Shown: positions 1,525 to 46,157 of the stretch, piece after piece
How the letters are laid out: every line of letters begins with the position of its first letter
Numbering within the stretch: position 1 is the stretch's first letter
Source: Patescibacteria group bacterium
GTDB taxonomy: Bacteria; Patescibacteriota; Minisyncoccia; Phycocordibacterales; UBA1006
Length of the DNA: 64,000 nt
Assembly: GCA_028286885.1 (NCBI GenBank)
Contig: JAQBQS010000003.1
Coordinates: 44,607-108,606 of the forward strand
Direction of reading: 5' to 3'
Position numbers and translations under genes: made by a program
The notes under the pieces: generated by a model
The model's database searches: none
Told to the model about the DNA's origin: nothing
The model's input: the letters and a program-made list of their open reading frames with translations, nothing else

Positions 1525-2547
1525 ATGGAAGTTCCTGATATTACAAATTACGAAGGTTCGGCTCCTCCCCCTGCTAAGGGGGAGGCTGGGAGGGGGTTTG
1601 AAAATACAAACCCCCTCCTAACCCTCCCCTTAGCAGGTGAGGGAACAGGACAGCCGAAATCGCGCAAACGCAGGTTTGCGTTTTTTGGCTTAGTCGCGGG
1701 ACTTGCCGCCATTGTCGTTATTTCGTTCGGAATCGCCGGACGTCCTCCCTCTGACTTTGTTCCCGAAACGGTGGTTGTTATTCCCGGCAATGCATCTACA
1801 AAATCAGCCGGCGACATTCTCGTTAAAAATCACATCATCAGGTCGAGCAGCATCTTCCAGGCCATCATCCAAACGATCCTCGGCGATCGCCCCGTCATCG
1901 CCGGACAGTTCCAGTTTGACAAACCGGTCAGCGTCCTGAAAGCCGCGCAAATCGTTACGGGCGGATCATTCGGACGTACGCAGATCAAGCTTACAATTCC
2001 CGAAGGTTCAAGCAATGCCGACATTTCAAAAATCGTTCTCAAGCAGATTCCGGATTTCAATGAGAAAACATTTCTCAAGAATTCAGGACCATTCCAAGGA
2101 AACTTGTTCCCTGAGACGTATTTAGTTTTCAAAACCATTACTCCTGACGAATTGATTGCACGAATGCGGCAGGAATTCGACAAGAAAATTTCAGCGCTCA
2201 AGTCTGATATTTCGGCATCGAGACATGATCAAGAAGACCTCGTAAATATGGCTGCCATCTTGGAGAAAGAAGCCAAGAATTCAAGTGACGCTGCGCGCAT
2301 CGCGGGAATTCTGTGGCACCGCATTGCAATCGGAATGCCGCTTCAAGTAGATGCCGCGCCTGTAACATACAAGGAAAAAGGATTTCCGAAAGTGCCGATC
2401 GGCAATCCCGGCGTTGCGATGATCAATGCGGCGATTCATCCCGTTTCATCCGACTATTTGTATTATCTGTACGACAAGAAAGGCGTGATCCATTATGCCA
2501 AGACGTACGCGGGGCATCAGGCGAACATCGAAAAATATCTGAGGTAA
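1525..2547 (+). CDS. mltG: endolytic murein transglycosylase, MltG/YceG family
   Basis: N-terminal TM (FAFFGLVAGLAAIVVISFGIAG) plus the C-terminal YceG-like signature LQVDAAPVTY...PIGNPGVAMINAAIHP. ATG at 1525 chosen; the ORF opens at 1474 but that would overlap the upstream gene. Confidence 0.7.
   Translation: MEVPDITNYEGSAPPPAKGEAGRGFENTNPLLTLPLAGEGTGQPKSRKRRFAFFGLVAGLAAIVVISFGIAGRPPSDFVPETVVVIPGNASTKSAGDILVKNHIIRSSSIFQAIIQTILGDRPVIAGQFQFDKPVSVLKAAQIVTGGSFGRTQIKLTIPEGSSNADISKIVLKQIPDFNEKTFLKNSGPFQGNLFPETYLVFKTITPDELIARMRQEFDKKISALKSDISASRHDQEDLVNMAAILEKEAKNSSDAARIAGILWHRIAIGMPLQVDAAPVTYKEKGFPKVPIGNPGVAMINAAIHPVSSDYLYYLYDKKGVIHYAKTYAGHQANIEKYLR
1556..1641. repeat. GC-rich nested palindromic element (~86 bp) lying in-frame inside the mltG N-terminal coding region
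   Basis: CCTCCCCCTGCTAAGGGGGAGGCTGGGAGGGGGTTT-(loop)-AAACCCCCTCCTAACCCTCCCCTTAGCAGGTGAGGG. The arms are near-perfect reverse complements and far more GC-rich than the flanks. The terminal CCTCACC resembles the DUF559-element termini. Confidence 0.6.
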
Positions 2548-3178: not shown

Positions 3179-4252
3179 TTTTCATGGTTTTTGAAGAAAA
3201 ATAAAATAGGAAAAGGAAAGAAAGCCTTCGTCGGAGTTTCCGGCGGCGTCGATTCGTCCGTGTCGGCGGCGCTCTTGATCGAGCAGGGATACGACGTTGT
3301 CGGTGTTTTCATCAGGACATGGCAGCCCGATTGGATCCCGTGCACTTGGAAGGACGAGCGGCGAGATGCAATGCGCGTATGCGCTCACTTGAACATTCCG
3401 TTTGTTGAACTTGATTTGGAACAAGAATACAAGAAAGGCGTTGCCGACTATATGATCGCTGAATATAAATCAGGCCGTACGCCGAATCCCGATGTCATGT
3501 GCAACCGTGAGGTAAAGTTCGGAGGATTTTTGAACTGGGCGCTCGAGCATGGAGCAGATCATGTCGCGACAGGTCACTATGCAAGAAACGATGGTCAATT
3601 GATGAAGGGAGTTGATCCGTCAAAAGACCAGTCCTATTTTTTGTGGATGCTCACAAAAGAGCAGCTTTCAAAAATTCTGTTTCCCATCGGCCATCTTGAA
3701 AAATCAGATGTGCGAAAACTTGCTGAAAAATTCAAGTTGCCCACAGCGACCAAAAAAGATTCACAAGGGATCTGCTTCATCGGTGAAATCGATATGAAGG
3801 AATTCTTGAGACATTATATTGACATAAATCCCGGAGATGTTTTGAATATCGACGGAGAAAAAATAGGAACGCACGATGGTTCATTGTTTTACACTCTCGG
3901 AGAAAGGCACGGTTTCGTCATTTCTAAAAAAACGACGCGCGACATGCCGTACTATGTCGTCGAAAAAAATATCGACAAGAATACGATTACCGTATCTCAG
4001 GACCCCGCAAGCTTTGAGAATTCGACTGATGTTATCTTGCGTGATTGCGTATGGCGAGAAAAAATAATTTCCGATAAAAAATACGATGCCCAAATCCGCT
4101 ATCACGGGCATTTAAAGCCAGGTATTCTTGTTCAAGGAGTACAAGGGGAATGGATCGTACATTTTGATGAGTCAGATTTCTCGCTTTCACCGGGACAATC
4201 GGTTGTCGTGTATGACGGCGATGTTTGCGTCGGCGGGGGAATCGTGAAATAA
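3176..4252 (+). CDS. mnmA: tRNA-specific 2-thiouridylase MnmA
   Basis: PP-loop SGGVDSS plus conserved MnmA blocks (IRTWQPDW..., NPDVMCN..., FLNWALEHGADHVATGHYAR). Confidence 0.85.
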   Translation: MFSWFLKKNKIGKGKKAFVGVSGGVDSSVSAALLIEQGYDVVGVFIRTWQPDWIPCTWKDERRDAMRVCAHLNIPFVELDLEQEYKKGVADYMIAEYKSGRTPNPDVMCNREVKFGGFLNWALEHGADHVATGHYARNDGQLMKGVDPSKDQSYFLWMLTKEQLSKILFPIGHLEKSDVRKLAEKFKLPTATKKDSQGICFIGEIDMKEFLRHYIDINPGDVLNIDGEKIGTHDGSLFYTLGERHGFVISKKTTRDMPYYVVEKNIDKNTITVSQDPASFENSTDVILRDCVWREKIISDKKYDAQIRYHGHLKPGILVQGVQGEWIVHFDESDFSLSPGQSVVVYDGDVCVGGGIVK

Positions 4253-4262
4253 TGCAAGAATC

Positions 4263-5333
4263 ATGCGGTTTTTTCGCGCCTTTGCAAAGACTTCTTTTGT
4301 CATTCTTGCTCTCATCGGGCTTGCCTTCGTAGGCGTGTTTGTCAGCATGCAATTCGGCTGGACGAACGTGCGCGGAACGATTGCCGAAAGGAATAATTCC
4401 TTCTTTAAGAATATTCCCAAAACTGCTTCGGCAAACAGCAATTCAAGCCAGGCAGTGATTTTGTGCAAGGTTCACGCGCTTGCGAACTTTGCCCCGCAGA
4501 CAGCGCAAAATATCGAGAATGCTTACCAGCAAACTAACGATGGCAGTCTCGCGTCTGCGATGTTTTCCGTCGCAGCGCTTCGTTTCGCGGGGACGTCGCT
4601 CCAATCAAATTTTGACATGTGCGCTACGGCAACCGTGCCGGATTTGACTCCTGTAACCCAGACGGCGTACGCATGGGCGGATTCTGCCGAGTGGGGAGTC
4701 ATGAAGTCCGCATTTGTCCGCGATCAGGATACGATCAATCGCGCGGCGCGCGATGCCGGCATCTCGCCGCGATTGCTTCTCGGAGGAATTATCGGCGAAC
4801 AGTTCCGTTTCTTCACGAGCGAGCGCGATTCGTTCAAGCAGTATTTCGAGCCGTTGAAAGTCCTCGCGTCTCTTTCGAAATTTTCATACGGAATTGCGGG
4901 ACTGAAGCCTGAAACGGCGCAGCTCATCGAAGACCACTTGCATGATTCGACCTCGGTATTTTATTTAGGGTCGGAAATGGAAAATGTCATTGCGTATCCG
5001 GACGGCTCTGATCATGACACGGTTCGATTCGACCGAATCACCGATACCAAGAATACCTACTATTCATATTTGTACGCAGGGCTTTTCATGCGCGAAGTTA
5101 CGAACCAATGGAAGGCGGCGGGGTACGATATTGCCGAGCGTCCCGATGCGCTCTCGACACTCTACAATCTCGGATTCAATCGCTCGATTCCGAAGCCCGA
5201 TCCGGCGGCGGGAGGAGCGCCGATTACGGTCAACGGACAACTTTATAATTTCGGCGACTTGGGGTACCAGTTCTATTATTCAGGGGAATTGATTCAAGAA
5301 TTTCCCTATGTTTCGAGTTCGCCTTCTCAATAA
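4263..5333 (+). CDS. hypothetical membrane-anchored/secreted protein
   Basis: 356-aa ORF with an N-terminal hydrophobic segment (FVILALIGLAFVGVFVSM). No recognisable family. Confidence 0.5.
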   Translation: MRFFRAFAKTSFVILALIGLAFVGVFVSMQFGWTNVRGTIAERNNSFFKNIPKTASANSNSSQAVILCKVHALANFAPQTAQNIENAYQQTNDGSLASAMFSVAALRFAGTSLQSNFDMCATATVPDLTPVTQTAYAWADSAEWGVMKSAFVRDQDTINRAARDAGISPRLLLGGIIGEQFRFFTSERDSFKQYFEPLKVLASLSKFSYGIAGLKPETAQLIEDHLHDSTSVFYLGSEMENVIAYPDGSDHDTVRFDRITDTKNTYYSYLYAGLFMREVTNQWKAAGYDIAERPDALSTLYNLGFNRSIPKPDPAAGGAPITVNGQLYNFGDLGYQFYYSGELIQEFPYVSSSPSQ

Positions 5334-5403
5334 AAAATAAAAAAGATTTTTGTTATCCACAAAAATCTTTTTTTGTTGCAACTTCGTGCTGTATACTTGT
5401 CGC

Positions 5404-5955
5404 ATGAATATCAGCTCTTTCGTTATGCAGACATTTGATGCACCATTTCTTCTTATCATGGCCAAGCTCGCAGTCGCGATGCTCTTGGGGCTTGTCCTCG
5501 GACTCGAGCGCGTCTATGCGCACAAGACGGCCGGAATGCGAACGTACGCGCTCGTCGCGCTCGCTTCCGCCGCGTTCATAACGGTGTCAGTATTTATCGG
5601 AGACCATTTCATGCAGTTTGCCGCGGGTTTCAATCCGGCATTTATCGCAGGCGAGATTGTTGTCGGTGTCGGATTCCTCGGAGCGGGACTTATCATCTTC
5701 AAAGACGGGCATATTGAAAACCTGACAACGGCAGGAGGACTTTGGATCTGTGCCGGCATCGGCATGATGTGCGGATTCGGCATGATCAGAGAGGCTATCT
5801 TTACCGGAGTTCTCACATTTTTCGTCATGGGAGTCCTGTCGGTTGTCGAGCGCAGAATCCGCCTTCATTATTTCCCGGATCCGGTATTTGAAGCCGCGCT
5901 CATCGCCGAGAAAAAGCCCCGCAAAAAGCGAGTTGTAAAAGTTCCTGTGCAATAG
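5404..5955 (+). CDS. MgtC/SapB-family membrane protein
   Basis: MAKLAVAMLLGLVLGLERVYAHKTAGMRTYALVALASAAF is the typical MgtC N-terminal block. A terminator hairpin and a TATACT box lie upstream. Confidence 0.7.
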   Translation: MNISSFVMQTFDAPFLLIMAKLAVAMLLGLVLGLERVYAHKTAGMRTYALVALASAAFITVSVFIGDHFMQFAAGFNPAFIAGEIVVGVGFLGAGLIIFKDGHIENLTTAGGLWICAGIGMMCGFGMIREAIFTGVLTFFVMGVLSVVERRIRLHYFPDPVFEAALIAEKKPRKKRVVKVPVQ

Positions 5956-39194: not shown

Positions 39195-39241
39195 CCGTCA
39201 GAATTATTTAGAGCAGGTCGAGAGACTTGCTTTTTTATTAC

Positions 39242-39734
39242 CTCACCCGTCTCGCTTCGCGAGCCACCCTCTCCTCTGCGAGGAGAGGGACGAACTTTAG
39301 ATTTTCTTTAAATATGGTTGTTAAAATTCCATTCATGGGAATTATCAATGGAATTCAAAATAAAGAAAAAAGAAGATTTCTTCGCAAAAACCAAACACTT
39401 GAGGAAGAATTTGTTTGGAGAAACCTACGAGGGAACAAAATGGGAATGAAATGGCGACGGCAAGTAAGTATTGGTCAGTATGTCGCAGATTTTTACTGCA
39501 CGGCAAGAAAGCTTGTTTTAGAGATCGATGGCGACCAACATCTTGCTGAGAGTGCTAGAGGATATGATGAAATTAGGACTCATTTTTTCGAAATAAATGG
39601 AATTAAAGTAATTCGGATTTCTAATAAAGAACTTAATAGCGACCCTCAGATTCTTTATCAGAAGATAAAAGATTTCGAACGCTGACCCTCTCCTCGCAGA
39701 GGAGAGGGTGGTTTGCGCAGCAAACCGGGTGAGG
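39242..39734. mobile_element. MITE-like element: DUF559 endonuclease gene flanked by ~55-bp GC-rich nested-palindrome terminal inverted repeats
   Basis: Left IR 39242..39296 CCTCACCCGTCTCGCTTCGCGAGCCACCCTCTCCTCTGCGAGGAGAGGGACGAAC. Right IR 39677..39734 GAACGCTGACCCTCTCCTCGCAGAGGAGAGGGTGGTTTGCGCAGCAAACCGGGTGAGG. The arms are reverse complements, and each contains the internal palindrome CCCTCTCCTCTGCGAGGAGAGGG. Host terminators flank both ends. Confidence 0.6.
39314..39685 (+). CDS. DUF559 (Vsr-like endonuclease fold) domain protein
   Basis: FVWRNLRGNKMGMKWRRQVSIGQYVADFYCTARKLVLEIDGDQH...IKVIRISNKEL matches the DUF559 core. The stop codon lies inside the right IR. Confidence 0.65.
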   Translation: MVVKIPFMGIINGIQNKEKRRFLRKNQTLEEEFVWRNLRGNKMGMKWRRQVSIGQYVADFYCTARKLVLEIDGDQHLAESARGYDEIRTHFFEINGIKVIRISNKELNSDPQILYQKIKDFER

Positions 39735-39742
39735 TTTGTAAA

Positions 39743-39766
39743 AGGCGACTAACATCGCCTTTTTTC
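39743..39766 (+). terminator. intrinsic terminator
   Basis: aaggcgactaacatcgcctttttt, followed by cttgccaaaaa. Confidence 0.6.
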
Positions 39767-39950: not shown

Positions 39951-40385
39951 ATGTTAATCGGAGAATACCGGCACACGCTGGACGAAAAGAATCGATTGTC
40001 GCTCCCGGCGAAATTTCGCAAGGAGCTCGGCAAAAAAATTATCATGACGCGAGGTCTCGATCGCTGTCTTTTCGTATATCCGGTTGCCGAGTGGAAGAAA
40101 TTTTCCGAACAGCTCGCATCGCTCTCGATCGGTTCGGCCGAGGGGCGAGGTTTCTCGCGAGCGATGCTCGGAGGCGCCATGGAGGTTGATGTGGACGGCA
40201 GCGGCCGCGTGCTCGTGCCCGACCATTTGAAATCCTACGGATCGCTCTCGGCGAAAGTCGTCGTGGCAGGAATCCATAATCGCGTCGAGCTTTGGAACGA
40301 GGAGGCTTGGAACTCGTACACCACAGGCGTCGAGAAGGAAGCGAATTCATTGGCTCAGAAATTAGCAGATATCGGAATGATCTAG
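39951..40385 (+). CDS. mraZ: transcriptional regulator MraZ
   Basis: MLIGEYRHTLDEKNRLSLPAKFRKEL and a second repeat, GRVLVPDHLKSY. It heads the dcw cluster. Confidence 0.85.
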   Translation: MLIGEYRHTLDEKNRLSLPAKFRKELGKKIIMTRGLDRCLFVYPVAEWKKFSEQLASLSIGSAEGRGFSRAMLGGAMEVDVDGSGRVLVPDHLKSYGSLSAKVVVAGIHNRVELWNEEAWNSYTTGVEKEANSLAQKLADIGMI

Positions 40386-40389
40386 TTGT

Positions 40390-41304
40390 ATGCACATTCC
40401 CGTACTGTTTAATGAATCAATAGAAGCTCTTTCAATAAAAAAAGACGGGACATACGTTGACGGGACGCTCGGAGGGGCAGGGCATGCCTGTGAAATTGCC
40501 AGGCATTTGGGGCCAGATGGAACGTTGATTGGTTTCGATCTGGATTCGAATGCAATAGCTCGCGCCAAGGAAAAACTTACCCCCTCCGCGATACGCTCCG
40601 GCGGGTCAGGGCAGATGTGCAAAGTCATTCTTGTTCAAGAAAACTTCAGGAATCTCGATAAAGTTCTTGAAGAACATGATATCCAAGAAGTTGAGGGAAT
40701 ATTTCTTGATTTGGGATGGTCGTCATTTCAGATTGCCGACGCGAGCAGGGGGCTATCTTTCCAAGAAGACGGGCCTCTGAAAATGACATTGAAGGACAAT
40801 CCGGGCGAGGACGATGTGACGGCTTATGACATCGTGAACTCATGGGACGAGAAAACGATCGCGGATACGATCTACACCTACGGCGACGAGCGCGCATCGC
40901 GCAGAATTGCCAAGGCAATCGTGGATTGGCGCCGCAAAAAGCCGATTATCACGACGTTCGACTTAGTTTCCGTCATCGAATCGGTAATGCCAAGAAAGCC
41001 TTGGATGAAAACCAATCCGGCAACGAAAACGTTTCAGGCCCTTCGCATCGCAACGAATGATGAATACGGGGCGCTCGGCGAAACGCTTGAGAAAGGATTC
41101 GAAAGGCTCAAGCAAAGCGGGCGATTCGCGATCATTTCATTCCACTCGGGCGAGGATCGCATTGTCAAAAATTTCTTCCGCGACAAGGCGCATGCCGATC
41201 TTGCAACCTTGATTACGAAAAAACCAATCACGCCAAGCGAAGCGGAACTCGCAGTCAATCCGCGTGCCCGAAGTTCGAAGCTGCGCATCTTAGAAAAAAT
41301 ATGA
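40390..41304 (+). CDS. rsmH: 16S rRNA (cytosine1402-N4)-methyltransferase RsmH
   Basis: HIPVLFNESIEAL...YVDGTLGGAGHA...GFDLD is the RsmH/MraW signature. Confidence 0.9.
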   Translation: MHIPVLFNESIEALSIKKDGTYVDGTLGGAGHACEIARHLGPDGTLIGFDLDSNAIARAKEKLTPSAIRSGGSGQMCKVILVQENFRNLDKVLEEHDIQEVEGIFLDLGWSSFQIADASRGLSFQEDGPLKMTLKDNPGEDDVTAYDIVNSWDEKTIADTIYTYGDERASRRIAKAIVDWRRKKPIITTFDLVSVIESVMPRKPWMKTNPATKTFQALRIATNDEYGALGETLEKGFERLKQSGRFAIISFHSGEDRIVKNFFRDKAHADLATLITKKPITPSEAELAVNPRARSSKLRILEKI

Positions 41305-41609
41305 TTCCTTTTACAAAAAAAATCTTTTCCGGAACTTTGAACACGACACTCCTTATGGTCATCGTGGGCTTGTTCGGTGCGTACTCGTTTTTCATCGGGC
41401 ACAGCGTTGTTGCTATTAACCAGCGCAAGGCTCTTTTGTCGCAAGTACGTACCACCCAATCAGCAGTGTCAGATTCAGAAATTAAATATTTCAACCTTGC
41501 CTCCGCAATCGACATGAATACGGCGGCGAAATACGGCTTCGTTGATTCCAAAACACCCGACTTTGCCTACACGGCACCGAATGGCGAGAATACAGTGGCT
41601 GTAAGATAA
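41301..41609 (+). CDS. FtsL-like small bitopic cell-division protein
   Basis: 102 aa with a single TM (LLMVIVGLFGAYSFFIGHSVVAI), positioned between rsmH and ftsI. Confidence 0.5.
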   Translation: MIPFTKKIFSGTLNTTLLMVIVGLFGAYSFFIGHSVVAINQRKALLSQVRTTQSAVSDSEIKYFNLASAIDMNTAAKYGFVDSKTPDFAYTAPNGENTVAVR

Positions 41610-41617
41610 ATATTTCA

Positions 41618-41775
41618 TACCCCCTCGCCTCGCAGAGCCTCGGCATTCCCCCTAGAAGGGGGAGACAGTTCTGCTGGATTATTTTTTAAAATCTTTTTTT
41701 CAGCTAAATCACAACTTCCAGTTATGCGAAGCTGTCCTCCCCTTATAGGGGAGGTGCCCGTAGGGCGGAGGGGTA
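41618..41775. repeat. cargo-less GC-rich nested-palindrome element (related to the DUF559 element)
   Basis: Left TACCCCCTCGCCTCGCAGAGCCTCGGCATTCCCCCTAGAAGGGGGAGACAG. Right CTGTCCTCCCCTTATAGGGGAGGTGCCCGTAGGGCGGAGGGGTA. The arms are inverted repeats separated by a 63-bp AT-rich spacer, filling the ftsL-ftsI intergenic region. Confidence 0.55.
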
Positions 41776-41798
41776 TTGGTATGTTAAAATAACACCCA

Positions 41799-43514
41799 AT
41801 GGATGCAATTATTTTTAAAAAGCGAATATGGATCGTGATCTTGGGAGTCGTTCTCGTGGTCCTTTTGATCATCGGAAAATTATTTTATCTGCAGATCATC
41901 CACGGCTCGACGTACGAACTCTTGGCGGACCGGCAATACGTAACGCAGCTCTCAACGCTCTTTGACCGCGGATCGATTTATTTCTCTGACAAGGACGGCA
42001 ATCTCGTTTCCGCCGCGACGCTCAAATCAGGATTCAAGGTAGCGATTAATCCGGGACAGATCACCGATCCGGAAACTGTTTTTAAGGCGATCGGTCCGAC
42101 GCTCGGACTCGACCATGACACGTTCGTTATGCGCGCGTCCAAGAAGAACGATAGCTATGAGGAAATTGCAACGAATATTGACGAGGAAGCGGCGTCTCAC
42201 GTTTCAGCTCTTAAGATTCCAGGCCTTTCCATCTACCGAATGAACTGGCGGTTTTATCCGGGAGCATTCTTGGCGTCGAATGTCATCGGATTTATGGCGT
42301 ACAAGGGAAACGATTTCACGGGCCGTTACGGCATCGAACGCGCCTACAACGACATTCTCTCGCGGGCGAGCCAGGACTTGTACGTGAACTTTTTCGCGGA
42401 AATCTTCTCGGACGTGGGCAACCTTGTCGACAAGAAGACCGAGACCGAGGGCGATATTGTTACGACGATCGAGCCGTCAGTGCAGCAAAACTTGGAGTCG
42501 ATGCTCAAGGGAGTCCAGACAGAGTGGAATTCGGATCGCGTCGGCGGCATTGTCATGGATCCCAAAACCGGAGCGGTCTTGGCCATGGGGCTCTCCGACG
42601 GATTCGATTTGAATCAGAGCCGAAACGTTACCGACGTTTCGCAGTTCAATAATCCTCTTGTGGAAAGCGATTTTGAAATGGGCTCGATCATGAAGCCGGT
42701 CATCATGTCGATTGCGATCGATCAGGGCGCGGTTACGCCAACAACGACTTATAATGACAAAGGATTCGTGCAGGTTGCAAACCGCACGATCTACAATTTC
42801 GACAAGAAAGGGCGCGGTGCAAACATCACGATGCAACAAGTTCTTAATCAATCCCTTAACACGGGAATGGTCTTCGTCATGCAGCACATGGACAAGGCGG
42901 CGTTTCGCGACCAGTGGAAATCATTCGGATTCGGCGAAAAAACGGGAATCGATCTGCCGGCCGAGGGAACGGGACTCATTTCGAACGTGAACACGAACTA
43001 TGATGTGAACTTTGCGAACATCTCGTTCGGCCAAGGCGTTGCGGTCACGCCGATCGAGATGATCCGCGCGCTTGCTGTTTTGGCAAACGGCGGGCATTTG
43101 GTCACGCCGCATGTCGCTTCGCGAGTCGAGTATCCGAGCGGACTTTCAAAGACGTTGGACTGGCCGGTAACAGGGCAATTGATCAAGCCTGAGACTGACG
43201 CGACAATTACAAAGATGCTCACAACCGTGTTTGATAATTACAACGGCGGAACGATCAAGCTCGATCATTATTCCATCGCGGCGAAAACGGGTACGGCGCA
43301 GATTCCTGATTCGTCCACCGGAGGCTACTATCCTGATCGCAACCTTCACACGTTCATGGCGTACTTCCCGGCGCAGGATCCAAAGTTCATCGTCTTCTTC
43401 TACAACTACTATCCGAAAAACGGCGCCAAATATTCGTCAGATACGCTCCTTCCGCCGTTCGTAAATTTTGCGAAATTCCTGATAAATTATTACGATGTTC
43501 CGCCGGACCGGTAA
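41799..43514 (+). CDS. ftsI: penicillin-binding protein / peptidoglycan D,D-transpeptidase FtsI
   Basis: N-terminal TM and dimerisation domain. Transpeptidase motifs SIMK (SxxK), SLN (SxN) and KTGTA. Confidence 0.85.
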   Translation: MDAIIFKKRIWIVILGVVLVVLLIIGKLFYLQIIHGSTYELLADRQYVTQLSTLFDRGSIYFSDKDGNLVSAATLKSGFKVAINPGQITDPETVFKAIGPTLGLDHDTFVMRASKKNDSYEEIATNIDEEAASHVSALKIPGLSIYRMNWRFYPGAFLASNVIGFMAYKGNDFTGRYGIERAYNDILSRASQDLYVNFFAEIFSDVGNLVDKKTETEGDIVTTIEPSVQQNLESMLKGVQTEWNSDRVGGIVMDPKTGAVLAMGLSDGFDLNQSRNVTDVSQFNNPLVESDFEMGSIMKPVIMSIAIDQGAVTPTTTYNDKGFVQVANRTIYNFDKKGRGANITMQQVLNQSLNTGMVFVMQHMDKAAFRDQWKSFGFGEKTGIDLPAEGTGLISNVNTNYDVNFANISFGQGVAVTPIEMIRALAVLANGGHLVTPHVASRVEYPSGLSKTLDWPVTGQLIKPETDATITKMLTTVFDNYNGGTIKLDHYSIAAKTGTAQIPDSSTGGYYPDRNLHTFMAYFPAQDPKFIVFFYNYYPKNGAKYSSDTLLPPFVNFAKFLINYYDVPPDR

Positions 43515-45950: not shown

Positions 45951-46157
45951 ACGTCGTGGCGATTACTTCATATTAACTCGTTAATATTCGGTAATCGTAA
46001 AATTAGCGAATAAACTCCGTTGCTATTAATAATGACTCTCGACACCTTCAGTATACTCCTCTAAAAATAAGAGGAGTACATATTGACAGTGGATAAGATT
46101 TGTATCTTATTTTTCAATGAAAAATCCCCTTGGTTTGCAAGGGGATTAGATAAATTC

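Follow-up and report, generated by a model that had tools for sequence, protein, structure and literature searches.

A probable inverted pair of BoxC/PIT-type triplex repeat units between ftsL and ftsI in a Patescibacteria genome

BoxC and PIT repeats are reportedly treated by Bergler (1992), Bachellier (1999), and Hoyne and Maher (2000). BoxC was rediscovered as PIT by Hoyne and Maher, and these sequences, since renamed TMECO, are class II triplex motifs (PMC4666352). There are 23 copies in Escherichia coli MG1655, always intergenic and without strand bias, and tandem inverted pairs of them are found at five loci (PMC4666352). TMECO forms a triplex in vitro, as judged by circular dichroism and nuclear magnetic resonance, its loci are more rearranged between strains than control loci, and it is reported to be absent from Salmonella (PMC4666352). 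Here we describe a GC-rich element at positions 41619-41774 of a 64-kb stretch (64,000 nucleotides, hereafter the window) of contig JAQBQS010000003.1 from a Patescibacteria group bacterium, where it lies between the open reading frame (ORF) in the ftsL position and ftsI. We consider it probable, at roughly 0.7, that the element is an inverted pair of BoxC/PIT-type triplex units of a hairpin-loop variant, and that it is a DNA repeat and not a gene or an RNA.

The element consists of two inverted GC-rich units of 39-45 nt each with an AT-rich spacer of 72 nt between them. Its parts and its immediate flanks are as follows.

41301-41609, plus strand: ORF in the ftsL position, left flank; 102 amino acids, with a hydrophobic N-terminal stretch seen by eye
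41619-41663, minus strand: left repeat unit, from the triplex-motif scan, the inverted repeats and the sequence
41664-41735, no strand: AT-rich spacer between the units; 72 nt, or 63 nt with the arms drawn longer
41736-41774, plus strand: right repeat unit, from the triplex-motif scan and the sequence
41782-41790, plus strand: extended -10-like box TGTTAAAAT, 8 nt before the ftsI ATG (41799); outside the repeat, which it bounds
41799-43514, plus strand: ftsI-type penicillin-binding protein transpeptidase, right flank; Pfam PF00905 and PF03717

On one strand, each unit reads as a C-rich pyrimidine (Y) block, a complementary purine (R) block, and a G-rich 3' end block that mirrors the R block. 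A pyrimidine block followed on the same strand by its purine complement and a mirrored purine block defines a class II intrastrand triplex motif, and both units have all three blocks. In the right unit, the Y block CCTCCCCT (41736-41743) and the R block AGGGGAGG (41747-41754) form the hairpin CCTCCCCT-TAT-AGGGGAGG at 41736-41754, followed by a second loop composed of a T and the hairpin GCCC-GTA-GGGC (41755-41766), and by the reverse-Hoogsteen-type end block GGAGGGGT (41767-41774). The left unit, read on the minus strand, has the Y block TCCCCCT, the loop TCT and the R block AGGGGGA, which appear on the plus strand as the hairpin TCCCCCT-AGA-AGGGGGA at 41647-41663. Its second loop (41626-41646) is 21 nt long and forms only a degenerate hairpin, and its end block AGGGGGT is the plus-strand ACCCCCT at 41619-41625. 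The G-rich end blocks of both units face outward, and both units are assigned to a subtype B, with the Y block TCCCCCT or CCTCCCCT and the end block GAGGGGGT or GGAGGGGT.

The same arrangement emerges from the inverted repeats. A 27-nt inverted repeat (41642-41668 and 41732-41758) is 78% complementary with its halves 63 nt apart, and a 13-nt outer inverted repeat (41617-41629 and 41764-41776) is 85% complementary. The pattern CCCCTNNNAGGGG has two matches in the 64-kb window, both of them in this element, and none in 100 shuffles. The inverted-repeat search and the sequence read-out therefore bear out the first-pass annotation, which had described GC-rich arms with hairpins around an AT-rich spacer between ftsL and ftsI.

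Of the six family units in the window, five (1564-1597, 39239-39289, 39686-39736, 41619-41663 and 41736-41774) are recovered by a scan for Y, R and mirror blocks, together with two further overlapping AT-rich matches at 46037-46096 that are taken as spurious, and there are no matches in shuffled windows. The mean mirror score between R block and end block is 5.62. Permuted pairings give 4.84 +/- 0.10, with a maximum of 5.14 in 1000, and the score is 3.73 when the end block is read as a direct repeat, in a test that counts related copies as independent. Examples of the mirror pairs are GGGGAGG with GGAGGGG, GAGGGAG with GAGGGA, and GAGGGGG with GGGGGAG. In addition, the position of the single A (non-G) in the R block predicts the A/T position in the end block, with 9 of 14, 78 of 81 and 6 of 8 cases on the diagonal.

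The second loops have a bimodal length distribution, being either 3 nt or 12-22 nt long. A perfect stem of at least 4 bp is present in 73% of 90 distinct long second loops, which the search pattern had left free, compared with 18% after shuffling. A strict grammar consisting of a C-rich hairpin, a GC hairpin and a G-rich end retrieves 135 units in 0.97 Mb and 0-1 in shuffles, and 51 of the 135 carry other hairpin sequences. Units occur singly or as inverted pairs, and the pairs are found in both arrangements. RNAalifold found no pairs in a MAFFT alignment of 52 units, which was not structure-aware, and structure was tested by motif scans and shuffles instead of a covariance model. A relaxed hairpin scan, with 14 matches against 4-10 in shuffles, had too high a background to use. 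The idea that the first hairpin loop holds a large cargo was rejected, as the partner block of the 'ATTTGGGGGAGG' subclass lies, with one exception, about 50-57 nt upstream and leaves no room for a gene.

Units of this kind are widely dispersed. The right-unit core GGGGAGGTGCCCGNAGGGCGG is present in at least 120 metagenome contigs that range from 31 to 72% GC, and in 87 of 123 cases it is preceded by CCTCCCC and a short loop, the 5' half of the hairpin having been left unspecified by the query. The sole match in the plasmid collection is between ureC and ureB on a Deinococcus aquaticus plasmid. Judging from contig composition, the family reaches many phyla in addition to Patescibacteria. Unit sites are mainly intergenic, with 27 in intergenic regions and 10 inside ORF calls, and they are found in co-directional, convergent and divergent gaps alike. 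There is no strand bias, since units between co-directional genes (contigs of at most 55% GC) have the same orientation as the genes in nine cases and the opposite orientation in eight. One contig (L019) has three near-identical units about 1.0-1.1 kb apart (3529-3565, 4544-4580 and 5635-5671), of which two are identical and the third is one base off, and another (L057) has three near-identical copies and a shorter related one, which points to recent multiplication in some genomes.

The strict TMECO pattern (CCCTCNCCC N3-6 GGGNGAGGG N3 GGGNGAGGG) has no match in the window, and its absence places the window units in the broader class and not in TMECO itself. There are six units in the window, no two of them near-identical, and they make up three elements. 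All C-run/G-run hairpins of the family type in the window fall within these three. In outline, the family assignment made at first pass holds. The elements other than the ftsL-ftsI pair, and the genes between them and that pair, are as follows.

1547-1660, plus strand: compact pair of units in the MltG/YceG gene; 114 nt, in frame, in the N-terminal coding region
39229-39746, plus strand: DUF559-bearing element with 61-nt inverted arms (39229-39289 and 39686-39746) that are 82% complementary
39239-39289, minus strand: subtype A unit to the left of the DUF559 gene, from the triplex-motif scan
39335-39685, plus strand: DUF559 ORF; PF04480, E = 5.7e-26
39686-39736, plus strand: subtype A unit to the right of the DUF559 gene, from the triplex-motif scan
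39951-40385: mraZ, in the operon upstream of the element
40390-41304: rsmH, in the operon upstream of the element

The units of the DUF559-bearing element are of subtype A (CCCTCTCCTC ... GGGTGAGG). The likeness of the ftsL-ftsI arms to the termini of this element, which had been noticed at first pass, holds for the architecture, given the complementary 61-nt arms and the outward-facing units. The nearest solved structure to the DUF559 protein is 3HRL. In the public record this protein (P0001, 39314-39685) is called a 'cytosine methyltransferase'; Pfam gives DUF559 and a weak REase_MTES_1575 only, and the public name looks wrong. In a relative (L004), a DUF559 orthologue that is 66% identical lies upstream of mraZ (5340-5920) on the opposite strand, with inverted arms of the same kind. 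This orientation would reflect either a flip by recombination between the arms or an independent insertion in the opposite sense. The left hairpin of that copy is broken by a nested insert.

The pair in the MltG/YceG gene (1525-2547) is formed by one unit at 1564-1597 on the plus strand and an inverted, imperfect partner at about 1607-1645. Five MltG homologues, with identities down to 61%, keep the second unit only, as the peptide PLPNPPLQGEGAA, and the window gene has an additional 69-nt inverted unit beside the one common to the homologues. The similarity of the extra unit to its partner may reach a few bases into the native flank (TTCGGCT), which hints at an origin by local inverted duplication. 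The matches at 46037-46096 that were set aside above are an AT-rich hairpin (CTCCTCT...AGAGGAG) that the triplex-motif scan caught on both strands. It is not like a family member and may be a terminator.

The history of the ftsL-ftsI site was read from FtsI relatives in genome and metagenome collections, with seven genomes compared including that of the window. The FtsI tree is ((window, L128), L002), joined next by L004 and then by L003 and L005, with L006 outermost. Four different states are found at the site in these seven genomes. The window has two units, its closest relative L128 (FtsI 92% identical) has the left unit only, and L004 (69% identical) has a near-identical right unit joined to a left arm that is longer and of another kind. 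No element is present in the other four spacers, which are those of L003, L005, L006 and L002 (78% identical), the last being only 16 nt long. The site therefore differs among close relatives.

The units are nevertheless well conserved wherever they are shared. The left unit agrees with its counterpart at this site in L128 at 49 of 51 aligned positions (96%), and four-fold sites of ftsI are 49% identical between these two genomes. The right unit matches that of L004 at 41 of 46 positions (89%), and the corresponding four-fold sites are 36% identical. Even the second loop of the left unit, which departs from the consensus, shows no change at the orthologous site. This high conservation could reflect selection or a local function, or repeated re-copying from a shared source.

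A further observation was made in L128 (4147-4240), where CTGGTGAGGT stands just before the -10 box at the place where the window has the right unit. It resembles an end block (GGTGAGG) and pairs with CCACCAG to the left of the left unit, and by analogy it may be the remnant of an internal deletion that preserved a hairpin. Internal deletions preserving a hairpin have been described for the E. coli pairs by Holder et al. (PMC4666352).

Turnover is also apparent at other sites. L128 and L139, two contigs from one metagenome sample, bear the closest relatives of the window's genes, and they have units that the window is without. Two of these are in frame in MnmA (L139, 11643-12803) and one is likewise in frame in UvrA (L139, at about 2957), and others lie between mltG and an RNase T gene (L139, 10966-10988) and right after ftsI (L128, 6002-6022). 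The UvrA and MltG copies in related contigs are identical over the Y-loop-R core and an upstream block. Exact insertion boundaries in MnmA are not definable because unit and native codons overlap.

The first-pass annotation had offered a structured RNA or attenuator of ftsI as one interpretation. An element acting in cis within the dcw operon, be it a structured RNA (an attenuator, stabiliser or processing site) or a DNA structure by the ftsI promoter, and retained because it tunes ftsI, would have some points in its favour. The fold predicted for the 189-nt ftsL-ftsI spacer is very stable. It has an energy of -70.7 kcal/mol when computed for RNA (z = -4.3) and of -33.1 kcal/mol when computed for DNA (z = -3.8), and none of 200 shuffles is as good. 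Similarly, the right unit ends close to the extended -10 box, at a distance of 7 nt in the window and 6 nt in L004, and the units at the site are conserved well above neutral. However, such conservation belongs to the family everywhere and is not peculiar to this site, and the element is missing from four of the seven homologous spacers.

There is no Rfam match at the element, either at gathering thresholds on the window and 12 loci or at E <= 10 on the local region, and no terminator-like T-run. The position is not conserved, the units lack strand specificity (9:8), and they occur in every intergenic context and inside genes. In addition, neither promoter nor terminator activity was detected in published tests of PIT elements from E. 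coli (PMC4666352). The absence from most spacers, the lack of an Rfam match, of strand bias and of a T-run argue against an attenuator. The element is not a conserved attenuator, nor in all probability a regulatory RNA, and should not be annotated as a riboswitch or attenuator; there is no sign that it regulates cell-division genes. A role in tuning ftsI from the DNA or the RNA thus appears very improbable.

The region just downstream has its own conserved feature, which also counts against an attenuator of ftsI. An extended -10 box of the TG-n-TA(n)AAT type is found about 8-12 nt before the ftsI ATG in the window and in all six relatives that were read (window 41782-41799, L002 1168-1186, L003 9990-10003, L004 8348-8368, L005 5032-5058, L006 9983-10003 and L128 4236-4256). 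The box is kept even where the ftsL-ftsI gap is 16 nt, and the element, where present, is upstream of it. A sigma-70 scan found no -35/-10 pair, as expected for an extended -10 promoter without a -35. The conserved box suggests that ftsI in this clade of the candidate phyla radiation (CPR) is transcribed from a promoter of its own, into an mRNA that is leaderless or nearly so. The operon order mraZ-rsmH-(ftsL)-ftsI is confirmed by Pfam, in which the 102-amino-acid ORF has no match; the name ftsL is provisional and derives from its position and its conservation in relatives.

The other interpretation given at first pass was that of a miniature inverted-repeat transposable element (MITE) derived from the DUF559-bearing element. 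A true MITE would here be a 158-bp non-autonomous deletion derivative of an element with a DUF559 gene, and would have moved as a whole by its terminal inverted repeats. Part of this holds, because the two elements belong to the same repeat family and have the same arrangement, with terminal inverted repeats, units that face outward as they do around DUF559 genes, and an AT-rich interior. It is also in agreement with a MITE that a gene-less pair adjoins the DUF559 gene upstream of dnaJ in L003 and L004, and that there are far more units without a gene than with one. Several observations speak against the part concerning descent. The spacer is unlike the interiors of DUF559 elements, and the arms behave independently of each other: single units are common, L128 has the left unit alone at this site, and L004 joins the same right unit to a different left unit.

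The subtype differs as well. The ftsL-ftsI units share the second subtype (B), which makes the window's DUF559 element (A) an unlikely source, and the DUF559 paralogue that subtype B accompanies in relatives is another one, that of the dnaJ-upstream pair. To our knowledge, DUF559 is not a known transposase family. No target-site duplication is evident. A TA duplication was considered and set aside, since the T after the end block belongs to the motif and the next base varies across 123 arms; the TA seen at either end is a palindrome in its own right. The idea that the spacer is a relic of a DUF559 gene was rejected, as the spacer aligns locally with the interiors of DUF559 elements no better than shuffles do. 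In the window's DUF559 element, a 51-nt upstream segment gives one marginal match with the minus-strand spacer (z = 2.5), but its p = 0.03 is uncorrected among 18 comparisons and fails correction. We therefore regard descent of the element as a MITE from a DUF559-bearing parent as improbable.

Units are strongly clustered at DUF559 genes. Twelve DUF559 genes were found independently of the repeat, in CPR relatives, two Bacteroidota-type loci, an Aminicenantes metagenome-assembled genome, two other contigs and E. coli (ycjD), and 11 of the 12 have a unit within 300 nt. There is usually one unit on each side, with the end blocks outward. The density of units is 2.54 per kb near DUF559 genes and 0.092 per kb elsewhere in the same loci, a contrast of about 28-fold (binomial P about 1.6e-11). 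Similarly, six of seven DUF559 genes in 760 kb of metagenome loci that had been selected for units are at most 120 nt from one. DUF559 clades track the unit subtype, and L004 has two paralogues, each with its own subtype. The paralogues upstream of dnaJ in L003 and L004 (L004a) share 63% identity, and their identity to the window copy is 41-45%.

The twelfth gene is E. coli ycjD. TMECO no. 9 in the published MG1655 table lies about 165 nt from the 3' end of this gene, and the sole match of the strict TMECO pattern among 144 loci is the one from E. coli, beside ycjD. Among 5426 complete E. coli genomes, 5409 match a BoxC sequence, at a median of 17 places per genome, and 3377 have the ycjD locus. 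At this locus (L141, MG1655 1349400-1352400), the 3' end of ycjD is partly duplicated beside TMECO no. 9, with gaatattctccagcaccgtctcc occurring twice (1803-2065), and a degenerate second motif within the same interval overlaps the stop region of ycjD. The fabI-sapF site without ycjD was rejected as a clean empty site, because one strain (L145) has unrelated efflux transporter genes next to sapF.

In the literature that was searched, no paper combining DUF559 or ycjD with BoxC or a triplex was found, and there was nothing relevant on DUF559 with inverted repeats, on Vsr-like proteins with repetitive extragenic palindromes (REPs), or on the arm sequence. A lead to small noncoding repeats of Deinococcus offered no sequence for comparison. 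The study by Holder et al. (2015) has no occurrence of 'ycjD' or 'endonuclease' (PMC4666352).

We know of no established function for DUF559. One possibility, which we advance tentatively from the gene associations, is that, in bacteria at large, BoxC/PIT-type triplex units act in cis as the partners of DUF559 endonucleases, which are Vsr-like PD-(D/E)XK enzymes, forming a second system unrelated to that of REPs and REP-associated tyrosine transposases (RAYTs), and that pairs of the ftsL-ftsI type are non-autonomous offspring or homing sites. If this were true, a small nuclease gene with structured repeats on both sides would give rise to large families of units that lack a gene. Recognition by the nuclease would be of the folded hairpin or triplex form, which would account for the mirror and hairpin covariation and for the conservation above neutral.

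The dependence might also run in the reverse direction. Unit pairs would then be pre-existing host repeats, and free-standing DUF559 genes would recognise such pairs and insert beside or between them in the manner of homing endonucleases; the ftsL-ftsI pair would be an unoccupied homing site and no derivative of a DUF559 element. Homing endonucleases with a Vsr fold exist (I-Bth0305I), and DUF559 clades match unit subtypes as they would match a recognition site. This scheme would also fit the gene-less pair and the gene-bearing element sharing a unit arrangement when the spacer is unrelated to the gene, the location of DUF559 genes on either side of units in different loci, and the retention of units by E. 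coli genomes without ycjD. However, no orthologous site pair was found in which the same two units both enclose and do not enclose a DUF559 gene, and homing leaves the multiplication of units, their in-frame insertion in genes and their conservation across phyla unexplained. We consider this direction of dependence unlikely.

An inverted pair of BoxC/PIT-type units might arise and persist in the following manner. In a single strand, the end block would fold back into the major groove of the hairpin to form G*G:C and A/T*A:T triplets, with the connector between the second and third blocks forming a small GC hairpin in this lineage. Units would be gained, duplicated and lost by events that involve the single strand in its folded state. 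One candidate route is template switching where replication meets the fold, and nicking or cleavage by the cognate DUF559 nuclease followed by repair copying is another; such spread would resemble, by analogy, the dependence of REPs and of REPINs, their inverted pairs, on RAYTs. The pair would sit passively between the ftsL stop codon and the extended -10 box of ftsI, where an insertion would be tolerated because an extended -10 promoter needs no -35.

Several points weigh against this picture. Triplex formation by units with a hairpin in the second loop is a prediction made by analogy, the left unit has a poor hairpin in this loop, and the mirror comparison draws on related copies as if they were independent. 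The conservation of units far above neutral sites is unexplained by a purely passive repeat. Recent activity in this genome has no support from the six window units, and neither a target-site duplication nor a clean empty site is definable among the 123 arms and the related contigs. With regard to DUF559, the protein and the units are a candidate enzyme-substrate pair only, whether the action be binding or cutting, and most E. coli genomes without the ycjD locus still carry units. Mobility genes were not found near the E. coli copies by Holder et al. (PMC4666352).

The element itself is ordinary, being a further copy of a repeat kind known since the 1990s. Three aspects go beyond the published picture. 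The family reaches Patescibacteria and, going by contig composition, many phyla, in a variant whose second loop holds a hairpin and which would have escaped published triplex searches. Some units are in frame inside the essential genes for MltG, MnmA and UvrA. Units are also strongly concentrated at DUF559 endonuclease genes, among them ycjD of E. coli. How BoxC/PIT repeats originated and spread has so far been unexplained, and the DUF559 link is a possible clue. It names a specific candidate enzyme-substrate pair, which makes both the spread of the repeats and the function of DUF559 testable in E. coli. This association is a lead, drawn from sequence comparison, and is the part worth pursuing.

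Of the systems already described, BoxC/PIT/TMECO is the closest in design. The window family shares its three-block class II plan, its GC-rich units of 35-50 nt, its mostly intergenic location without strand bias, its frequent tandem inverted pairs and its variation in locus among close relatives. It differs in having stems of 7-8 nt instead of 9 and a different sequence, and in a second loop of 12-22 nt that is usually a covarying GC hairpin, where TMECO has 3 nt; this length exceeds the loop limits of published searches (1-6 and 0-10 nt; PMC4666352). The host is a member of the Patescibacteria (CPR), and some copies are in frame inside genes, in contrast to the exclusively intergenic TMECO. 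The DUF559 association seen here is absent from the 2015 paper on TMECO (PMC4666352).

The units also resemble REP/REPIN-RAYT systems. In both, units stand singly or in inverted pairs and flank one small gene in inverted orientation, copies without a gene are far more numerous than those with one, and the protein clade goes with the repeat subtype. REP/REPIN-RAYT systems are reportedly treated by Nunvar (2010), Bertels and Rainey (2011) and Ton-Hoang (2012). Here, however, the associated protein is a Vsr-like PD-(D/E)XK nuclease (PF04480) and not an HUH Y1 transposase, and in a screen limited to the unit-flanked gene the only type found was this DUF559/Vsr-like one and not a RAYT. There is no conserved tetranucleotide of the GTAG type, the units are triplex motifs and not simple palindromes, and their sequence is shared across phyla, whereas REPs are species-specific.

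In its dimensions the element is reminiscent of MITEs such as Correia elements or those of the IS630/Tc1 type with a TA duplication, given its length of about 160 bp, its terminal inverted repeats, its AT-rich middle, and an intergenic position that can be between co-transcribed genes. Unlike in MITEs, arms are found singly, a target duplication cannot be demonstrated, a related transposase is lacking, and the arms are conserved across phyla with an internal structure of their own. Finally, the members that lie in frame in protein genes (MltG in the window; MnmA and UvrA in related contigs) are reminiscent of the Rickettsia palindromic elements, from which the present family differs in its unrelated sequence, its shorter units and its occurrence in more than one genus.

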